NCBI RefSeq assembly: GCF_000015805.1
Contig: NC_009073.1
Location: 420,001-452,000 of the forward strand
Direction: 5' to 3'
DNA from: Pyrobaculum calidifontis JCM 11548
GTDB lineage: Archaea > Thermoproteota > Thermoprotei > Thermoproteales > Thermoproteaceae
Length of the DNA stretch: 32,000 nucleotides
Shown: positions 4,809 through 24,811 of the stretch, one piece after another
Numbering within the stretch: the stretch's first letter is position 1
How the letters are laid out: every line of letters begins with the position of its first letter
The notes under the pieces: model-generated
The model's database searches: none
Told to the model about the DNA's origin: nothing
The model's input: the letters and a program-made list of their open reading frames with translations, nothing else
Translations under genes and position numbers: made by a program

Positions 4809-4827
4809 AAAGGCGAGTAATTCCCAC

Positions 4828-4846
4828 TTATAAAACTTTAAAAACT
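4828..4846. promoter_or_regulatory. Putative bidirectional TATA region shared by argS (-) and the rps28e-rpl24e operon (+)
   Basis: The only A/T-rich tract in a GC-rich context is TTATAAAACTTTAAAAA. It sits ~24 nt from GTG 4808 on the minus strand and ~20-25 nt from ATG 4864 on the plus strand. Confidence 0.45.
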
Positions 4847-4863
4847 CGTGCAAACGGCCGCCT

Positions 4864-5097
4864 ATGGCTGAGGAGGTAAAGTTCTCGCCATACGAGGATG
4901 CAGTAGCCGGGCTAGTGGTACAGATACTGGGGAGGACAGGCGTGGCAGGCGAAGTAACACAAGTGAAGATCAGAGTACTAGAGGGGAGAGACAAGGGCAG
5001 AGTACTCACTAGAAACGTAAAAGGCCCAGTACGCCTCGGCGACATTGTAATGCTAAGAGAAACCGAAAGAGAAGCCAGGAGAATTACGGCAAGATGA
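4864..5097 (+). CDS. rps28e: 30S ribosomal protein eS28
   Basis: 77-aa [53 protein letters not shown] is the canonical S28e sequence pattern. Confidence 0.95.
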
Positions 5098-15111: not shown

Positions 15112-15771
15112 GTGGAACTTGTGGAGGCGGTAAAGAAGGTGTTGATGGAGAACCCGTCGATACTAGTGGAGGTCCTAGTGGCAAAGCCGGAGATCTTGTA
15201 CCAAGCCCTGGCAAAGATAGCTCCATGGCAGTTGTTAGCCACGAAAGAGGACATAAGAAGACTTGAGGAAAAGATGGCGACAAAAGAGGACGTAAAAAGG
15301 CTGGAGGAGAGAGTGGCGGCTTTGGAACGTAGATTTGATAGTGAGATGCGCCGCTTGGAGACGACTATTACTGCCCTAGGCGCCAGGTGGGGGGTTCTCA
15401 GCGAGGAGGCCTTTAGGGAGGGGGTGAGGAGGCTCTTGGCCGAGGCCGGCTGGGCGGTGGAGAAGGTGATGTTATTCGACAGAGAGGGGTACGTCTACGG
15501 GGAGCCCTCCGAGGTTGAGTACGACGTAGTCGTGAAAGACGGCAAGACGTTCCTCGTGGAGATAACCTCTGCCCTCAAGCGCAGCGACTTGCCCACGCTG
15601 CGGCGGAAGAGGGAGTACTTCGAAAAAGCCAAGGGGGTGAAAGTAGACGCCGTCTTTGTAGTGACGCCGTTTATACACGACAGGGTGCCAGAGAGAGTTA
15701 AGGCCATGGCAAAGGATATGGGGATAGAGGTGGTATACCCCACCGACACATTGTTTGCATCAGCCCTGTAA
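15112..15771 (+). CDS. Coiled-coil + PD-(D/E)xK-like domain protein (paralogue of 23797-24435)
   Basis: 219-aa ORF. The N-terminal heptad-like repeats (KEDIRRLEEKMATKEDVKRLEERVAALERRF) are followed by EVEYDVVVKDGKTFLVEITS, a nuclease-fold-like block. It has the same two-part architecture as the 23797-24435 ORF. Confidence 0.6.
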   Translation: MELVEAVKKVLMENPSILVEVLVAKPEILYQALAKIAPWQLLATKEDIRRLEEKMATKEDVKRLEERVAALERRFDSEMRRLETTITALGARWGVLSEEAFREGVRRLLAEAGWAVEKVMLFDREGYVYGEPSEVEYDVVVKDGKTFLVEITSALKRSDLPTLRRKREYFEKAKGVKVDAVFVVTPFIHDRVPERVKAMAKDMGIEVVYPTDTLFASAL

Positions 15772-15780
15772 AAAGCCCTA

Positions 15781-15983
15781 CTATACAGCTCTATATATCC
15801 AATTTGTCAATTTTATTCTGGATGTATATCAAAAATCAAAAAACTCTGTAAAGTGCGACGTTTCGGGCCTAAGTGGGTTTTGGCGGCGGACTAAACTTTG
15901 ACAAGTGCCGTGTGGCCGCCGTTTTGGACAAGAATTTTCGTCGGACAACGGCGTCGGCGCCGCTTAGACAAAGAAAATGTAAA
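15781..15983. repeat. Left inverted repeat (IR-L) of the 2.4-kb cassette
   Basis: 15883-15983 (101 bp) is the exact reverse complement of 17969-18069; I checked this base by base. 15781-15882 pairs imperfectly with 18070-18170, roughly three quarters identical by eye with one small indel. Confidence 0.9.
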
Positions 15984-16120
15984 GAGGGTGGGTTGCTTTC
16001 AAGCGTCTTGCCGAGTCAAATCAAGTATTAGACGGCGGCTAATCGTTGGCCGCTTTCTAGTACCTGAATTCTCACTGCGCGGCCGAGCTTGCGTAGGTGG
16101 TTTTAAAATGTATTTTTAAC

Positions 16121-17947
16121 ATGGGAGAGGTGAGTGTGAGTGAGGCTTTGGAGGAGCTCCGCGAGAGGCTTGAGCGTTGGGACGAGCTGTGCGCTCAGCT
16201 TAAAGAGCTGTACTACAAGTACCTCGACCTTGCGGCATTCCGCTCAGATAAGTGCTACTTCCCCGGCCGCAAGTGCAAACGTAGCTGGGATCGCCAGTAC
16301 GACATGGGCGACCTAACCCTCATGTGGACGTACATTGCGAACACGGCCCCCCTCTGCGGCAAGCTCATAAGGGCGCTGGCAGAGGTAGAGTACAAAATCC
16401 GCTTAAAGGCTCTGGAAAGTCTAGAGAGGTACGGCGGTGTAGAAAAAAAGAGTAGGCCATCGAATGAAATTGTAAATTGGCAATTAAGGAAGCCTGTATA
16501 CTCGTATTTAGTAATAGATGGAGAAAAACTTTATGTTATATGGGGTGAACCAAAGGGGGTTCCGCACAGAGGTCGTCAAAGGTCTGTCGTGCTTGAAAGA
16601 AAAATTCTCGACGCTCTTCTAAAGATAAAGAGCGGCATTTTCGATGAGTTACACTTTAACGTCTTTAATATAGATCATGAATATGAGCGATTGTGGCTTG
16701 AGGTACCTTTGTCGGAGAGTGCGTCGAAGTTGTTAGGCGGAAGGGACAAGGCCCCGGTAGCGCTGTTCAGAAGCTTGGGCTGGCTGTTGAGCGACGACTC
16801 TAGGGTTAAGCTTGTACATGAGGCGGGCAACCCCGGCCAAGTAGCCTTAAGGTTGTTTGATTGGATTGCCTTGGTGAAATATGCTACCAAAAGGCTGGTA
16901 TTTGATGAAGACAAGCCGCTAGTGTTTAAGCTTGCCGTTCGCTACATTACAAAAACTAAGATAGGCGAAAATCCGCGTGTTTACATAAGGCCAATAGGCT
17001 TCTCCGCCCGTGTGATAAAAGAGACATATTTACGATTCGGTATCCCGTTTGGAAACCCAAAGGCGGTGATTGCTCATGGATATGAAGTTATCGGCGTGTT
17101 GAACAATATGGCGATAAGACGGCATAAAGTTGAAAGCGTTGTAGACGATGTAAATTCGTGGATGGCGCTAAGTGCAACTCTGACGTCGCTAATAATTGGC
17201 GATGGCACAATAAGTCCGTATTTGATACGGATATCCGCAAAAGCAAAGCCAGAGGGGGGTGCAGCTAGAGAGTTAGCAAAAGCGCTAAAAGTTTCGTGGC
17301 ATGAGGGCAAAGTCGCCCTCTGGCCGCGGCTCATGAAGCTCTTGTTACCAGCGCCGCCGACGCCGGCGTTTAAAAAGACTGTGAAGCTGTATAAGACGTT
17401 GCTAGAGTACCCAGTGGCTGTAGTCGTGAATATAGGAGGAAAGAAGTACTTGTTGAACAACGAAAAGGGGAGGTTTAGAATCGGTGGAAAGAAGGCCGTC
17501 GAACTACGCGAGCTACTCAGACGCGTGGGGGTAGAGGCCGGCTATAACGGGCGCCTCTACATAAAGTACAAAGATCTGATGAACTTGGCTAAACGCGGCT
17601 TCGAGGTGAAGTTCTTGAACCAAATGGAGAAGGAGGCCGTCAAAAGAGTGCCGCGGGCTGTGTCGGTGCCCGACCATGAAACTTTAAGGCGCATTTTCGA
17701 AAAAATTGCCGAAGTGGCGAGATTTCGCACAAAAACGTACGGGAAGCATAAATCCATCGTCATATCTCTGATCGACAAATCTAAGTTCGAAGAAGTGTTG
17801 AAGCTACTCGAAGCCTCTGGTTTGCGGTTTTCCGTGTATCAAAAGAAGAAGATGTTTATTATATATGAGCAAACGCTGGTTGAAGCCATATTGAGTGTTG
17901 TGTCACACCTTTTTTCTGCACCTTCTCTTTGTTTTTCATGTGTATAA
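16121..17947 (+). CDS. Large cassette-encoded protein of unknown function with LAGLIDADG-like motifs (possibly a Pyrobaculum multi-copy PaREP2-type family; unverified)
   Basis: Long uninterrupted ORF (opens at 16097; ATG 16121; GTG 16130 lies ~26 nt from TTTTAAAA at 16101-16108). It is visibly more A/T-rich than flanking genes. Motifs: SLGWLLSDDSRV (16772-16807) and SLIIGDGTISPY (17186-17221). Confidence 0.7.
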   Translation: MGEVSVSEALEELRERLERWDELCAQLKELYYKYLDLAAFRSDKCYFPGRKCKRSWDRQYDMGDLTLMWTYIANTAPLCGKLIRALAEVEYKIRLKALESLERYGGVEKKSRPSNEIVNWQLRKPVYSYLVIDGEKLYVIWGEPKGVPHRGRQRSVVLERKILDALLKIKSGIFDELHFNVFNIDHEYERLWLEVPLSESASKLLGGRDKAPVALFRSLGWLLSDDSRVKLVHEAGNPGQVALRLFDWIALVKYATKRLVFDEDKPLVFKLAVRYITKTKIGENPRVYIRPIGFSARVIKETYLRFGIPFGNPKAVIAHGYEVIGVLNNMAIRRHKVESVVDDVNSWMALSATLTSLIIGDGTISPYLIRISAKAKPEGGAARELAKALKVSWHEGKVALWPRLMKLLLPAPPTPAFKKTVKLYKTLLEYPVAVVVNIGGKKYLLNNEKGRFRIGGKKAVELRELLRRVGVEAGYNGRLYIKYKDLMNLAKRGFEVKFLNQMEKEAVKRVPRAVSVPDHETLRRIFEKIAEVARFRTKTYGKHKSIVISLIDKSKFEEVLKLLEASGLRFSVYQKKKMFIIYEQTLVEAILSVVSHLFSAPSLCFSCV

Positions 17948-17968
17948 TTCCCGCCGCATTCCCTCCCA

Positions 17969-18170
17969 TTTACATTTTCTTTGTCTAAGCGGCGCCGACG
18001 CCGTTGTCCGACGAAAATTCTTGTCCAAAACGGCGGCCACACGGCACTTGTCAAAGTTTAGTCCGCCGCTAAAACCATTAGGATCTCGAACGTCGTGCTT
18101 TACACAGTTTTCAGATTATTGATATTTAACCAGAATAGAATTAATAAAACTGATATGTAGAACTATATAG
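17969..18170. repeat. Right inverted repeat (IR-R) of the 2.4-kb cassette
   Basis: Reverse complement of IR-L: perfect over 17969-18069 and imperfect over 18070-18170. It begins 22 nt after the stop of the cassette ORF. Confidence 0.9.
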
Positions 18171-18198
18171 GTTTGTCTCATGCCGCAAAATGTTTTAG

Positions 18199-18381
18199 AG
18201 CTGTAGCAAGTTCCAAACTAATGTTCCCTTTCCCAAGGGCAACATCGAGCCTGGCGAGGCGCCCGAGGCAACTGCGCTGAGGGAGGTAAAGGAGGAGACG
18301 GGCCTCGACGTGGAGTTGGTAGAGGGCTTCCGGGAGGAGGTGGAGTACGTGTACCACTGGGCCATCGCGAGGTGGTCGTAG
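18199..18381 (+). pseudogene. 5'-truncated Nudix hydrolase remnant
   Basis: This frame reads ...NVPFPKGNIEPGEAPEATALREVKEETGLDVELVEGF..., a clear Nudix box (GX5EX7REVXEETG). There is no start codon, the ~30-40 N-terminal residues expected before the box are missing, and the frame ends prematurely. The remnant begins ~30 nt after IR-R. Confidence 0.65.
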
Positions 18382-18403
18382 TTCAGCTCGGGGTCTGAGC
18401 CTT

Positions 18404-18505
18404 GTGAAGTCCGGGGAGCTGAAGCAGGGCGGGGAGAAGGTGTGGAACTCCGTGGTGCAGTTGGTGAAGGCTGTGGCAGAGAGAAGACGTTGGCGCCACG
18501 CCTCC
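18404..18505 (+). pseudogene. Short gene fragment (PaREP1-like helix or frameshifted Nudix C-terminus)
   Basis: Reads KSGELKQGGEKVWNSVVQLVKAVAERRRWRHASL. It resembles the xEKxWxAxxxxVKAxA helix of PaREP1-type proteins. The frame then runs antisense into the serpin gene. Confidence 0.3.
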
Positions 18506-19690
18506 CTAGCCGACAACGTGGCCTATGAAGTATATGACCCTGTCATCTGCCAAGACGAAGAGAAACGGCCTATCCACTACCACCTCCGCACCGCCTACTT
18601 TGGCGCATACAGCGACTTCGACCGCGGTGGCCGCCGCGGCGACTACCCCATTTTCATAGGCCTTGACGTAGGTCCCGTGGAATACGTCGCTTAGATAGAC
18701 GTCGCGGGAGCCGTCCATGGGCGAAAAGTCGGCCTTAGATGGGTCAAAGGCCCTTATGATGCCCATTTCTTTCAACACATCTTTTACAGAACCCTTAAAC
18801 TCTGCCACAAAGATCGGCATTTTTACGTACACGACCTCGGCCGTCAAATTGGAGAGATCTTCCCTGAGTTTTTCATAATTCAACGAGGCCACGTAGGCTT
18901 TGAAATCCAGCGGCACGACAATGTACATGGCAGTCTCCGTGTTCTTCAGCGGTAGCTTCACCACGGTTATGTTGTCCTCTATTTTGCCCACCAACGATGG
19001 GTCGCCGCACGACCTCAAGTCGAGGGCCATGTACTCCACGGGGTGCGCCGCCCCGGCGAAGCTCCCCTCCCCCACCCTGGAAAAGGAGCGCGGCCACCAG
19101 CCTGCCTCAAAGTACAGCGCCGACACCAGCACTGCTACGACGTCCCTCTTTGGACTCGACGGAATTAGGTCTTTTACAAGGCCGCGCGTCTTTTCCTCAA
19201 CCCACTTGTTTATCTCCTCGACCGTGGCCTTAAAGTTGCCGCGAAAATCTACGCGGTGAGCCTCGGCGCAGAGACAAGCAAGCTTTTCCAAGTACTGCTG
19301 TGTAAATGTCGCTCCCGTCTGGAGCCACGCTGAGGTTGCCTCTTCCATGCCTCTGCCAGCTGGCGCCACTTCGCAGGGGTCTTCGCCGAAGCCGAAAACT
19401 CGCTTGATCTCCTCTCTAGTCTCGCCCCCAGCGCCTGCGTACACCATGGCGAAGGCCTTGTAAACGGAAAAAGGAGACACGGCGAAATTTTCGCCTAAGT
19501 GGCTCAGGGCCAGCCTCTTGTAAAACTCCACGGCGAACTCGTTGTAGCCGCTGGCGTTGAAGTTGAGGGCAGGAGAGGGCGAGCAATTTCTAGGCGGAGG
19601 GGCCGCCGGGCTTCCAACGCTTGACGACAACGCCTCTAGCAGTACCAAGGCAATTGCCCCCATGGCAACTAGGAGGTACAGACGTAGCAC
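18506..19690 (-). CDS. Serpin (serine protease inhibitor) with N-terminal signal/anchor sequence
   Basis: 394-aa ORF with a hydrophobic N-terminus (LRLYLLVAMGAIALVLLEAL), an inhibitory-type hinge ENGVVAAAATAVEV, and the C-terminal VVDRPFLFVL...FIGHV serpin signature. Confidence 0.9.
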   Translation of the reverse strand: MLRLYLLVAMGAIALVLLEALSSSVGSPAAPPPRNCSPSPALNFNASGYNEFAVEFYKRLALSHLGENFAVSPFSVYKAFAMVYAGAGGETREEIKRVFGFGEDPCEVAPAGRGMEEATSAWLQTGATFTQQYLEKLACLCAEAHRVDFRGNFKATVEEINKWVEEKTRGLVKDLIPSSPKRDVVAVLVSALYFEAGWWPRSFSRVGEGSFAGAAHPVEYMALDLRSCGDPSLVGKIEDNITVVKLPLKNTETAMYIVVPLDFKAYVASLNYEKLREDLSNLTAEVVYVKMPIFVAEFKGSVKDVLKEMGIIRAFDPSKADFSPMDGSRDVYLSDVFHGTYVKAYENGVVAAAATAVEVAVCAKVGGAEVVVDRPFLFVLADDRVIYFIGHVVG

Positions 19691-24616: not shown

Positions 24617-24811
24617 GTGGATGAGGACGTTTACTACGTCATAAGCTTCTCTTTGACCATAATTGGGATGCTGGGCGTGGCGTTGTACTGGCTAGGAGGG
24701 AAGTTTAAGAAACTAGAAAAGAGATTTGAGCAGATTGATGACAATATGGGTAGCCCTAGCGAGAAAAAAGGAAAGCCAGCAGTAGGATGCCCACCTACGA
24801 GAAGTGGATAG
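24617..24811 (+). CDS. Small putative membrane protein upstream of the HEPN gene
   Basis: 64-aa ORF with one TM helix (VISFSLTIIGMLGVALYWLGG). The GTG start is ~24 nt downstream of CTTTATATAATC (24588-24599). It overlaps the HEPN start by 25 nt. Confidence 0.35.
   Translation: MDEDVYYVISFSLTIIGMLGVALYWLGGKFKKLEKRFEQIDDNMGSPSEKKGKPAVGCPPTRSG

Follow-up and report, generated by a model that had tools for sequence, protein, structure and literature searches.

A repeat-bounded gene cassette of Pyrobaculum calidifontis is probably one copy of a family of mobile elements with a predicted LAGLIDADG-like nuclease gene

A 2.39-kb segment of the Pyrobaculum calidifontis JCM 11548 genome, lying in the 32,000-nucleotide stretch analysed here (the window; contig NC_009073.1, positions 420,001 to 452,000), is probably one copy of a new family of selfish mobile cassettes of Pyrobaculum, in which a gene for a LAGLIDADG-type nuclease is enclosed between long inverted ends. 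The segment belongs to a family of diverged relatives, is present or absent at one locus among close relatives with junctions that can be placed exactly, is inverted between lineages, has arms that evolve in concert and carries a gene under purifying selection. No earlier description of such a cassette family was found in the literature searched, and the family has no Pfam model and no annotation. Positions are those of the window unless a related locus, given by an L number, is named.

The original prediction, made from the window alone, had described a single-gene cassette between inverted repeats with a perfectly identical core, either a transposon-like unit or an invertible segment. In a direct check the two copies of the core (Table 1) are exact reverse complements (101 of 101 positions), and perfect identity ends there on both sides. 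A repeat search on the window returned inverted arms at 15876-15996 and 17956-18076. In a gapped alignment they widen to 15781-15988 and 17961-18170; 185 of the 213 columns match, and the outer half contains small indels, in agreement with the imperfect outward continuation that had been described. A 50-mer of the core has these two occurrences in the window and no others (100 shuffles gave an expectation of 0), and a profile built from related arms has two matches in the 32 kb, which are the known pair. The single enclosed gene with a TATA-like box of its own (open reading frame (ORF) 16097-17947) and the A/T-richer interior had likewise been read correctly, the inserted DNA having 48.5% G+C against 55% and 60% in the flanking 5 kb.

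The locus exists in relatives without the cassette. Orthologues of the neighbouring serpin (92, 88 and 80% amino acid identity) led to three contigs, L032, L033 and L034, which share the synteny of the window (2-hydroxyacid dehydrogenase, thiamine pyrophosphate (TPP) enzyme, DUF3782/PDDEXK_10 protein, serpin, helix-turn-helix (HTH) protein, an ORF of 214-215 aa and DUF488) and have no insert, so the check for empty sites that had been proposed came out positive. In these genomes the nuclease gene, whose product ends in VVYPTPP, abuts the serpin gene, and the two stop codons overlap by 4 nt. Alignment of the window with the three contigs places 2752 bp of extra DNA at 15744-18495, with CCAC on either side. 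The empty-site sequence at the junction is GGTGGTATACCCCACGCCTCCCTAGCCGAC, with GGTGGTATACCCCAC directly followed by GCCTCCCTAG; in the window, TATACCCCAC precedes the insert, which opens with CGACACATTG and closes with GACGTTGGCG, and CCACGCCTCCCTAG follows. The insert consists of a 37-nt extension, the cassette proper (15781-18170) and a 325-nt Nudix piece, and its junctions (15743/15744 and 18495/18496) lie 37 nt and 325 nt outside the repeat tips, which are thus not the insertion junctions at this locus. No target-site duplication stands directly outside the tips at the window locus, L009, L029, L001 or L020; the palindromic tip could hide one of TA or TATA. The possible flanking direct repeat that had been pointed to (15753 versus 18171) is attributable to chance, since 139 of 2000 shuffles score equally and it lies away from the CCAC junctions.

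Both pieces of DNA outside the tips came with the element. The gene that ends 9 nt from the left arm, predicted to be coiled-coil and nuclease-like, does encode a DUF3782 and PDDEXK_10 protein, and the last nine codons and stop of the window copy (15744-15771) come from the insert. The possibility that 15744-15780 is the native end of the PDDEXK gene was rejected, the native end at the empty sites being that in YPTPP. The same extension occurs at a different locus (L029 7020-7062 and L030 6592-6624), where it too adjoins an arm, the one on the 3′ side of the gene, and is accompanied by about 12-16 nt that resemble the end of the nuclease gene; this shared extension suggests that moves drag flanking DNA along. 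On the other side, the truncated Nudix gene that had been noticed is present as a Nudix-box fragment (18211-18378) truncated at both its N- and C-terminus. The idea that the insertion had truncated a resident gene was rejected, because the fragment is absent from the empty sites; it was therefore imported with the element. A search for an intact Nudix orthologue returned a single 53-aa fragment, which led to a further filled locus, L031. The locus is thus filled in the window, L009 and L031 and empty in L032, L033 and L034. One metagenome yielded both filled L009 and empty L033, with 96.6% identity in the flank, so the polymorphism is recent. We read it as an insertion because the empty state is found in the most divergent lineage and has a compact arrangement, and because the additional DNA is low in G+C and foreign in content.

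The repeat is a family-specific module. The search for copies elsewhere that had been suggested found many diverged ones, largely on hot-spring metagenome contigs, in addition to the three empty sites and one solo arm. By the arm profile, the module of about 210 bp stands at both ends of L009, L029, L001, L020 and L011, at the downstream end of L012, L014, L016, L017, L021 and L025, and at the upstream end of L010 and L013, and several contigs end within it. The arms are conserved over about 210 bp in 19 copies, and homology stops at the CTATATAG tip, beyond which the flanks of different copies are unrelated. Between elements the arms are 65-96% identical, their proteins just 45-80%. The arm consensus opens with the palindrome CTATATAG (arm tip sequence CTATATAGYTCTATATATCC), contains an invariant AAAACTnTGTAAAG block, and has TTGAC(GGCG) repeats in both orientations (internal arm repeats TTGACGGCG). 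The solo arm, which is degenerate, lies at L036 213-385 in the Pyrobaculum sp. metagenome-assembled genome (MAG) DRTY-8_201808_bins_12 (nhmmer E = 1.5e-13), between unrelated genes and with no family gene in the surrounding 8 kb. A scan of 185,579 species genomes with an arm pattern gave 52 chance matches in A+T-rich bacteria and one true match, L036; it missed P. calidifontis itself, which was seemingly missing or masked among the scanned genomes.

The two short ORFs within the arms had been called by-products of the repeat, and the 1-nt indels among copies in that stretch agree with this; moreover, right-arm ORFs of L029/L030 and window ORF 17895-18122 have no left-arm counterpart of at least 50 aa. 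On these two grounds, indels and ORFs not common to both arms, small arm-encoded proteins were rejected. Structured RNA was rejected as well: an Rfam search of the arms found none, and RNAalifold on 19 arms gave -5.8 kcal/mol with essentially no covariation. In L012 the upstream (2624-2796) and downstream (4820-5033) arms have the same orientation, forming a direct and not an inverted pair, which suggests rearrangement with an arm of a neighbouring element. A G+C-rich stretch of 16 nt in the window core, 15949-15964, recurs inverted with 94% complementarity at 17350-17365 inside the gene, where it forms the codons of a conserved PAPPTPA motif; this recurrence may be chance.

The protein encoded by the enclosed gene matches a hypothetical P. 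calidifontis protein (genome 2,009,313 bp) with 100% identity and has no match in Pfam, NCBIfam or PDB sequence searches. Relatives form about 110 clusters, all Pyrobaculum-like, two of them from P. calidifontis and the remainder from metagenomes of hot springs, where most lie on contigs of 2-5 kb. A protein search of the other named Pyrobaculum genomes found no family member, and a protein-pattern scan of the 185,579 species representatives found nothing, P. calidifontis itself being unmatched there too, seemingly again missing or masked. Carriage by viruses or plasmids was rejected, since there are no relatives in IMG/VR, phage records or the PLSDB plasmids. Against L029/L030, the closest full-length relatives, which sit at another locus, dN/dS is about 0.25, and the protein is therefore under purifying selection. 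The window copy is intact; frameshifts occur in L009 (at about 2046 and 3211), L020 (about 2740) and L023 (about 3762), and L009, its gene split across reading frames, is probably a pseudogene. The second P. calidifontis paralogue (L001 3664-6078, P0014) is 51% identical, has decayed arms (68% identical) and sits between genes for indole-3-glycerol-phosphate synthase and cation efflux. In a published table (PMC3388794) these two neighbours are adjacent or nearly so by locus tag in P. aerophilum, P. arsenaticum and P. islandicum, which hints that the flanks of L001 are a second insertion site; the table gives adjacent tags for P. calidifontis too, which is not reconciled with a paralogue between those genes.

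DNA similarity among paralogues is unevenly spread along the cassette. When window 15780-16450 is compared with L010, L013, L014, L012, L020 and L016, the left arm, spacer and first 115 or so codons have about 80% DNA identity among paralogues that are otherwise about 50% identical at the protein level (in blastn, window 15780-16451 has 80-81% identity with L010 400-1073 and L013 1-616), and the similarity stops abruptly near 16450. This drop suggests either that the N-terminal domain with its Cys residues is very strongly constrained or that gene conversion has taken place between copies. In paralogues, too, the spacer is conserved as one uninterrupted block with the left arm and the start of the gene.

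The cassette occurs in both orientations at the same locus. L009 (ENA ERZ1684501) and L031 (JGI 3300020567) are independent assemblies of the filled locus, collinear at 90% identity, and in both the 5′ end of the gene with its arm abuts the Nudix/serpin side, opposite to the window; in L009 the gene-3′ arm abuts the extension/PDDEXK side, where the window has the gene-5′ arm. Two assemblers and two samples agree on this flipped orientation. Because the extension adjoins the gene-3′ arm at the L029/L030 locus too, it is the window orientation that looks derived. The arms themselves record exchange, as had been suspected from the perfect inner and decayed outer parts of the repeat: the outer halves follow the flanks (window left arm versus L009 right arm 90%, window right arm versus L009 left arm 89%), and homogenisation within each element has left the inner halves 98% identical in the window and 93% identical in L009, against about 70% between the two. 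L009 has a perfect tract of its own, of 102 nt and shifted in position relative to that of the window, for which reason the pattern fits homologous exchange with gene conversion and not a fixed site-specific crossover. Copy correction in large inverted repeats, such as those of plastids or inverted insertion sequence (IS) copies, likewise keeps a tract of the arms identical as the outside diverges and the segment flips; here, in contrast, the scale is 0.2 kb, not kilobases, and the conservation of arms between non-allelic elements implies a sequence-specific role beyond recombination.

Exchange is also seen between copies. The 3′ part of L009 is 90.7% identical to L029, its 5′ part falling under the 85% cut-off of the comparison, and L030 differs from L029 by a replaced left arm and 3.4 kb; these mosaics are evidence for exchange between copies. 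L030 721-6600 and L029 4649-7019 are the same locus in two related metagenome strains, with left arms 72-75% identical. The extra 3.4 kb or so, between the left arm and the gene of L030, contains ORFs of 299 aa and of 460 aa (Pro/Thr-rich) without Pfam matches, and looks like the result of an exchange of cassettes, or of cargo captured within the repeat-bounded unit; that these ORFs are nested family members was rejected, there being no similarity. Within the core, the window carries the minority variant TTTCGTCGGACAACGGCG (in 15883-15983; arm alignment columns of about 175-200), with similar sequence in L014_R and L013_L, and L009, the orthologue of the window copy, has TTCCGCTTTTGACGGCG-type sequence at that site, as do most other copies. 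This suggests that the window core was imported from another copy.

Both orientations among related lineages, and long inverted repeats with a perfectly identical core, are also what would be expected if a site-specific recombinase flipped the segment at high frequency within a population for regulation, and an inverted-repeat-bounded segment seen both ways round is what the cassette has in common with the Hin/Gin/Cin, fim and Piv-type systems. We nevertheless consider such a programmed switch very improbable. Unlike those systems, the cassette has no invertase, its repeats are of about 210 bp and not short sites, and its exchange tracts vary, the identical ones of the window and L009 lying at different positions. 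No invertase or recombinase gene was found in the cassette or beside it, where the neighbours encode a PDDEXK nuclease and a serpin, and the TATA-like box lies inside the flipped segment, so that flipping with the gene gives no on/off and no promoter or gene-switch logic is seen. Beside the arms there is the 3′ end of a gene and a dead Nudix fragment, that is, nothing to switch, and the two orientations separate lineages about 10% diverged, not cells of one population. As to the invertible segment originally envisaged, therefore, the flip between lineages stands, probably as a product of homologous recombination, whereas nothing points to a dedicated invertase or switch logic.

The predicted structure of the protein offers a candidate driver of mobility. 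It consists of a helical N-terminal domain with Cys residues, a double-LAGLIDADG-like core and C-terminal alpha/beta domains. The N-terminal 115 or so residues are the best-conserved part, with four nearly invariant Cys, and the additional alpha/beta domains take up the last 170 or so. The core carries two motifs, LGWLLSDDS (residues 227-235; 16775-16801) and LTSLIIGDG (residues 362-370; 17180-17206), in which D233 and D234, and G368, D369 and G370, respectively, are invariant across alignments of 30 and 19 family members. The AlphaFold models have predicted local distance difference test (pLDDT) scores of 87 for the full-length protein and of 89.6 for the central domain modelled separately (predicted template modelling (pTM) score 0.90). 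In them both motifs lie at helix C-termini, and the second is followed by the canonical beta-beta-alpha-beta-beta-alpha topology. When the central domain was compared with the PDB by Foldseek, the top 38 matches were almost exclusively LAGLIDADG homing endonucleases (I-DmoI, I-OnuI, PI-SceI), with I-DmoI at probability 0.98 over about 226 aligned columns and a target-normalised template modelling (TM) score of 0.47-0.49. The full-length model was likewise enriched in LAGLIDADG matches in the PDB (I-DmoI, bI3 maturase, WhiA), and against the BFVD viral structures it matched DOD-type endonucleases and intein-bearing proteins. With moderate confidence, the modelled core may be called LAGLIDADG-like and probably catalytic. 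No DDE, HUH, serine or tyrosine recombinase or transposase was found by Pfam, NCBIfam, PDB sequence or fold search, so that the description of a transposon-like unit with long terminal inverted repeats (TIRs) and no recognisable transposase stands, given the empty sites and the copies in other contexts. We infer that the protein is an active nuclease that drives the spread of the element, with the arms as cis-acting binding sites.

We propose that the cassette was brought in as part of 2.75 kb of foreign DNA, flanked on one side by the 37-nt extension and on the other by 325 nt of Nudix gene sequence that stem from an earlier location, and that this DNA would have inserted at the junction of the convergent PDDEXK nuclease and serpin genes with only CCAC common to the joints. 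The likeliest route would be copying and repair that use a donor locus and are set off by the endonuclease or by a break, a homing-like process that leaves imprecise flanks; precise excision at the repeat tips would be the less likely one. After insertion, host homologous recombination between the arms probably inverted the cassette in the line leading to the sequenced strain, and the same exchange would keep the inner halves identical through gene conversion, the long inverted ends presumably recombining with other copies as well. The closest known systems are free-standing LAGLIDADG homing endonuclease genes, long-TIR insertion sequences and inversion with copy correction between inverted repeats, and the cassette shares part of the defining features of each. 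LAGLIDADG homing endonuclease genes, whether free-standing or encoded in introns or inteins, such as those for I-DmoI of Desulfurococcus and PI-SceI, resemble the cassette in the predicted two-domain core with an acidic residue ending each motif, in filled/empty polymorphism at one site among close relatives, in the side-by-side presence of intact and decayed copies as in the homing cycle, and in co-transfer of flanking DNA. They differ from it in that the cassette protein is about three times larger than I-DmoI, with its extra N- and C-terminal domains, and has no sequence-profile match to any LAGLIDADG family, and in that the cassette gene lies outside any intron or intein, exists as multiple diverged paralogues at different loci and is bounded by conserved 210-bp inverted repeats. 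We know of no homing endonuclease gene that needs conserved inverted ends.

Several observations weigh against this account. The assignment to LAGLIDADG draws on a predicted structure and short motifs: the first domain of the model has no clear first beta-hairpin, the Foldseek E-values are weak (0.02-0.1), Pfam LAGLIDADG_3 is matched at E = 0.2 in 2 of 30 family members, hhalign against I-DmoI aligned only the LIIGDG motif (probability 2%), and a profile search of the PDB returned no LAGLIDADG protein. Among 1.84 billion representative proteins, a central-domain profile had 51 matches, all within the cassette-gene family, and none that would bridge to canonical LAGLIDADG families as a remote homologue. 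For the flipped orientation, the evidence is two short-read assemblies (L009 and L031) that pass through a repeat whose exact tract is about 100 nt long (102 in L009). The polarity, probably insertion and less likely a 2.75-kb deletion between CCAC repeats, is read from parsimony, compactness of the empty arrangement and G+C content. The arm profile found no arms beside the paralogues L015, L018, L019 and L023, which are on long, high-coverage contigs. The homing-like model explains neither arms that are conserved more (70-80% at the nucleotide level) than the gene (45-50% at the amino acid level) nor the sharp end of homology at the tip. In most copies the boundary at CTATATAG is sharp, which speaks for movement that is usually from tip to tip, as in a transposon.

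These last points are at the heart of a different explanation, in which the element is a true long-TIR transposon of a new class: the protein would bind the multiple sites of the 210-bp ends, cut at the CTATATAG tips and move the 2.39-kb unit by cut-and-paste or cut-and-ligate, the additional 37 nt and 325 nt being remnants of a separate event that came before. In more than 15 copies of the arm, homology stops sharply at the tip and the flanks are unrelated, the repeated TTGAC(GGCG) resembles the subterminal binding sites of long-TIR transposons, the arms are more strongly conserved than the gene, copies occur in different contexts with many short contigs ending inside the repeat, and a solo degenerate arm survives in a Pyrobaculum MAG. 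Known long-TIR insertion sequences and DNA transposons resemble the cassette in several ways: a unit (here 2.4 kb) with one gene, inverted ends that are specific to the family and have a sharp outer tip and short repeats inside, several copies in one genome that lie in varied contexts, assembly breaks at the ends and relics in the form of a solo end. Yet no two-ended copy has a target-site duplication at its tips, the protein lacks any DDE, HUH, serine or tyrosine signature, the sole locus with an empty site, which holds the sole datable insertion, has off-tip junctions, and the loci sampled include no near-identical copies at different places, the copies being old and diverged (45-90% identity). 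To our knowledge, no LAGLIDADG protein acts as a transposase. We therefore hold the long-TIR transposon to be rather unlikely, and slightly more doubtful still its specific form as a new class of archaeal DNA transposon, in which a LAGLIDADG-type nuclease, its extra domains anchored to multiple arm sites, serves as the transposase; cuts at both ends would in that case allow the cassette to be rejoined elsewhere, or in place and flipped, which would also explain the inversion.

The paralogues without repeats could instead suggest that the family is resident and non-mobile, with regulatory flanks that happen to be inverted copies and with the empty genomes having lost the gene by deletion. Several of these paralogues, on long contigs of high coverage, look fixed, the gene is under purifying selection, and the CCAC repeat fits microhomology-mediated deletion equally well. 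Still, a gene family of this kind would not be expected to be absent from the other named Pyrobaculum (by protein search) and from 185,579 species representatives, to occupy a low-G+C segment with a foreign Nudix fragment, or to have close relatives (79-81% aa identity) at a different locus with the same 37-nt extension; frameshifted copies, mosaics and the solo arm agree with what a selfish element would leave behind in the course of its life cycle. A non-mobile host gene is thus unlikely, as is a programmed switch, and we regard the former as just as improbable as the latter. Because several long-contig paralogues lack the repeats, part of the family may nonetheless have become fixed or domesticated. 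Yeast HO endonuclease and WhiA, recruited LAGLIDADG proteins, are similarly large, free-standing and LAGLIDADG-derived, with domains of DNA-binding type, and by analogy the repeat-less paralogues could be recruits of this sort. WhiA has lost its catalytic acidic residues; the cassette protein, unlike it, keeps invariant acidic residues, and the window copy is an insertion polymorphism, not a conserved host gene.

By uniting a protein of homing-endonuclease type with long conserved TIRs, which normally occur in separate kinds of selfish DNA, the selfish mobile cassette that we favour would represent either a homing endonuclease gene escaping its dependence on a single site or a new transposition chemistry. 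A LAGLIDADG transposase, if real, would make this the first case of a transposon, or of a self-inverting element, that is driven by a homing-endonuclease fold. The mobile elements of Thermoproteales are poorly catalogued, and this family is common in hot-spring metagenomes that contain Pyrobaculum, where it breaks assemblies. At the window locus a natural series of filled, empty and flipped states makes the mechanism directly testable, and a new family of thermostable nucleases with long sites would be of interest as a tool.

Table 1. Features of the cassette and of its insertion site, in window coordinates.
Feature	Position	Strand	Remarks
Target gene, DUF3782 coiled-coil and PDDEXK_10 nuclease	15112-15771	+	Pfam PF12644, PF07788
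CCAC, left junction copy	15740-15743	.	target duplication or microhomology
37-nt extension outside the repeat	15744-15780	.	inserted DNA; absent from empty sites
Left arm of terminal inverted repeat, outer tip CTATACAG	15781-15988	+	family module of about 210 bp
101-nt core, left copy	15883-15983	+	read as a recent gene-conversion or crossover tract
Spacer	15989-16135	+	TATA-like box TTTTAAAATG (16101-16110), some 25 nt before the annotated GTG start
Gene for 603-aa protein	16136-17947	+	GTG start at 16136 (public annotation); ORF open from 16097 (616 aa)
Right arm of terminal inverted repeat	17961-18170	-	starts about 13 nt past the stop codon; inner end T-rich on the + strand
101-nt core, right copy	17969-18069	-	perfectly identical to the left copy
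325 nt carried in with the element	18171-18495	+	absent from L032, L033 and L034; 91-93% identity in filled L009 and L031
CCAC, right junction copy	18496-18499	.	from junction alignment
Serpin gene, right neighbour, convergent with the nuclease gene	18506-19690	-	Pfam PF00079; synteny with empty sites

Two further length differences were seen around the locus. The DUF3782/PDDEXK_10 gene contains a 39-nt tandem repeat (15238-15315; two copies, 74% identical) that encodes coiled-coil heptads, and its orthologues at the empty sites are longer, at 303 and 316 aa versus 219 aa, with extra repeat-like DNA (L033 8673-8922); the number of coiled-coil repeats therefore varies between strains. Elsewhere, about 395 bp with small ORFs in L033 (1505-1900) are lacking from the window at about 24741-24744, beside a HEPN/nucleotidyltransferase pair and PaREP1 genes, where they constitute a second indel polymorphism in the window.

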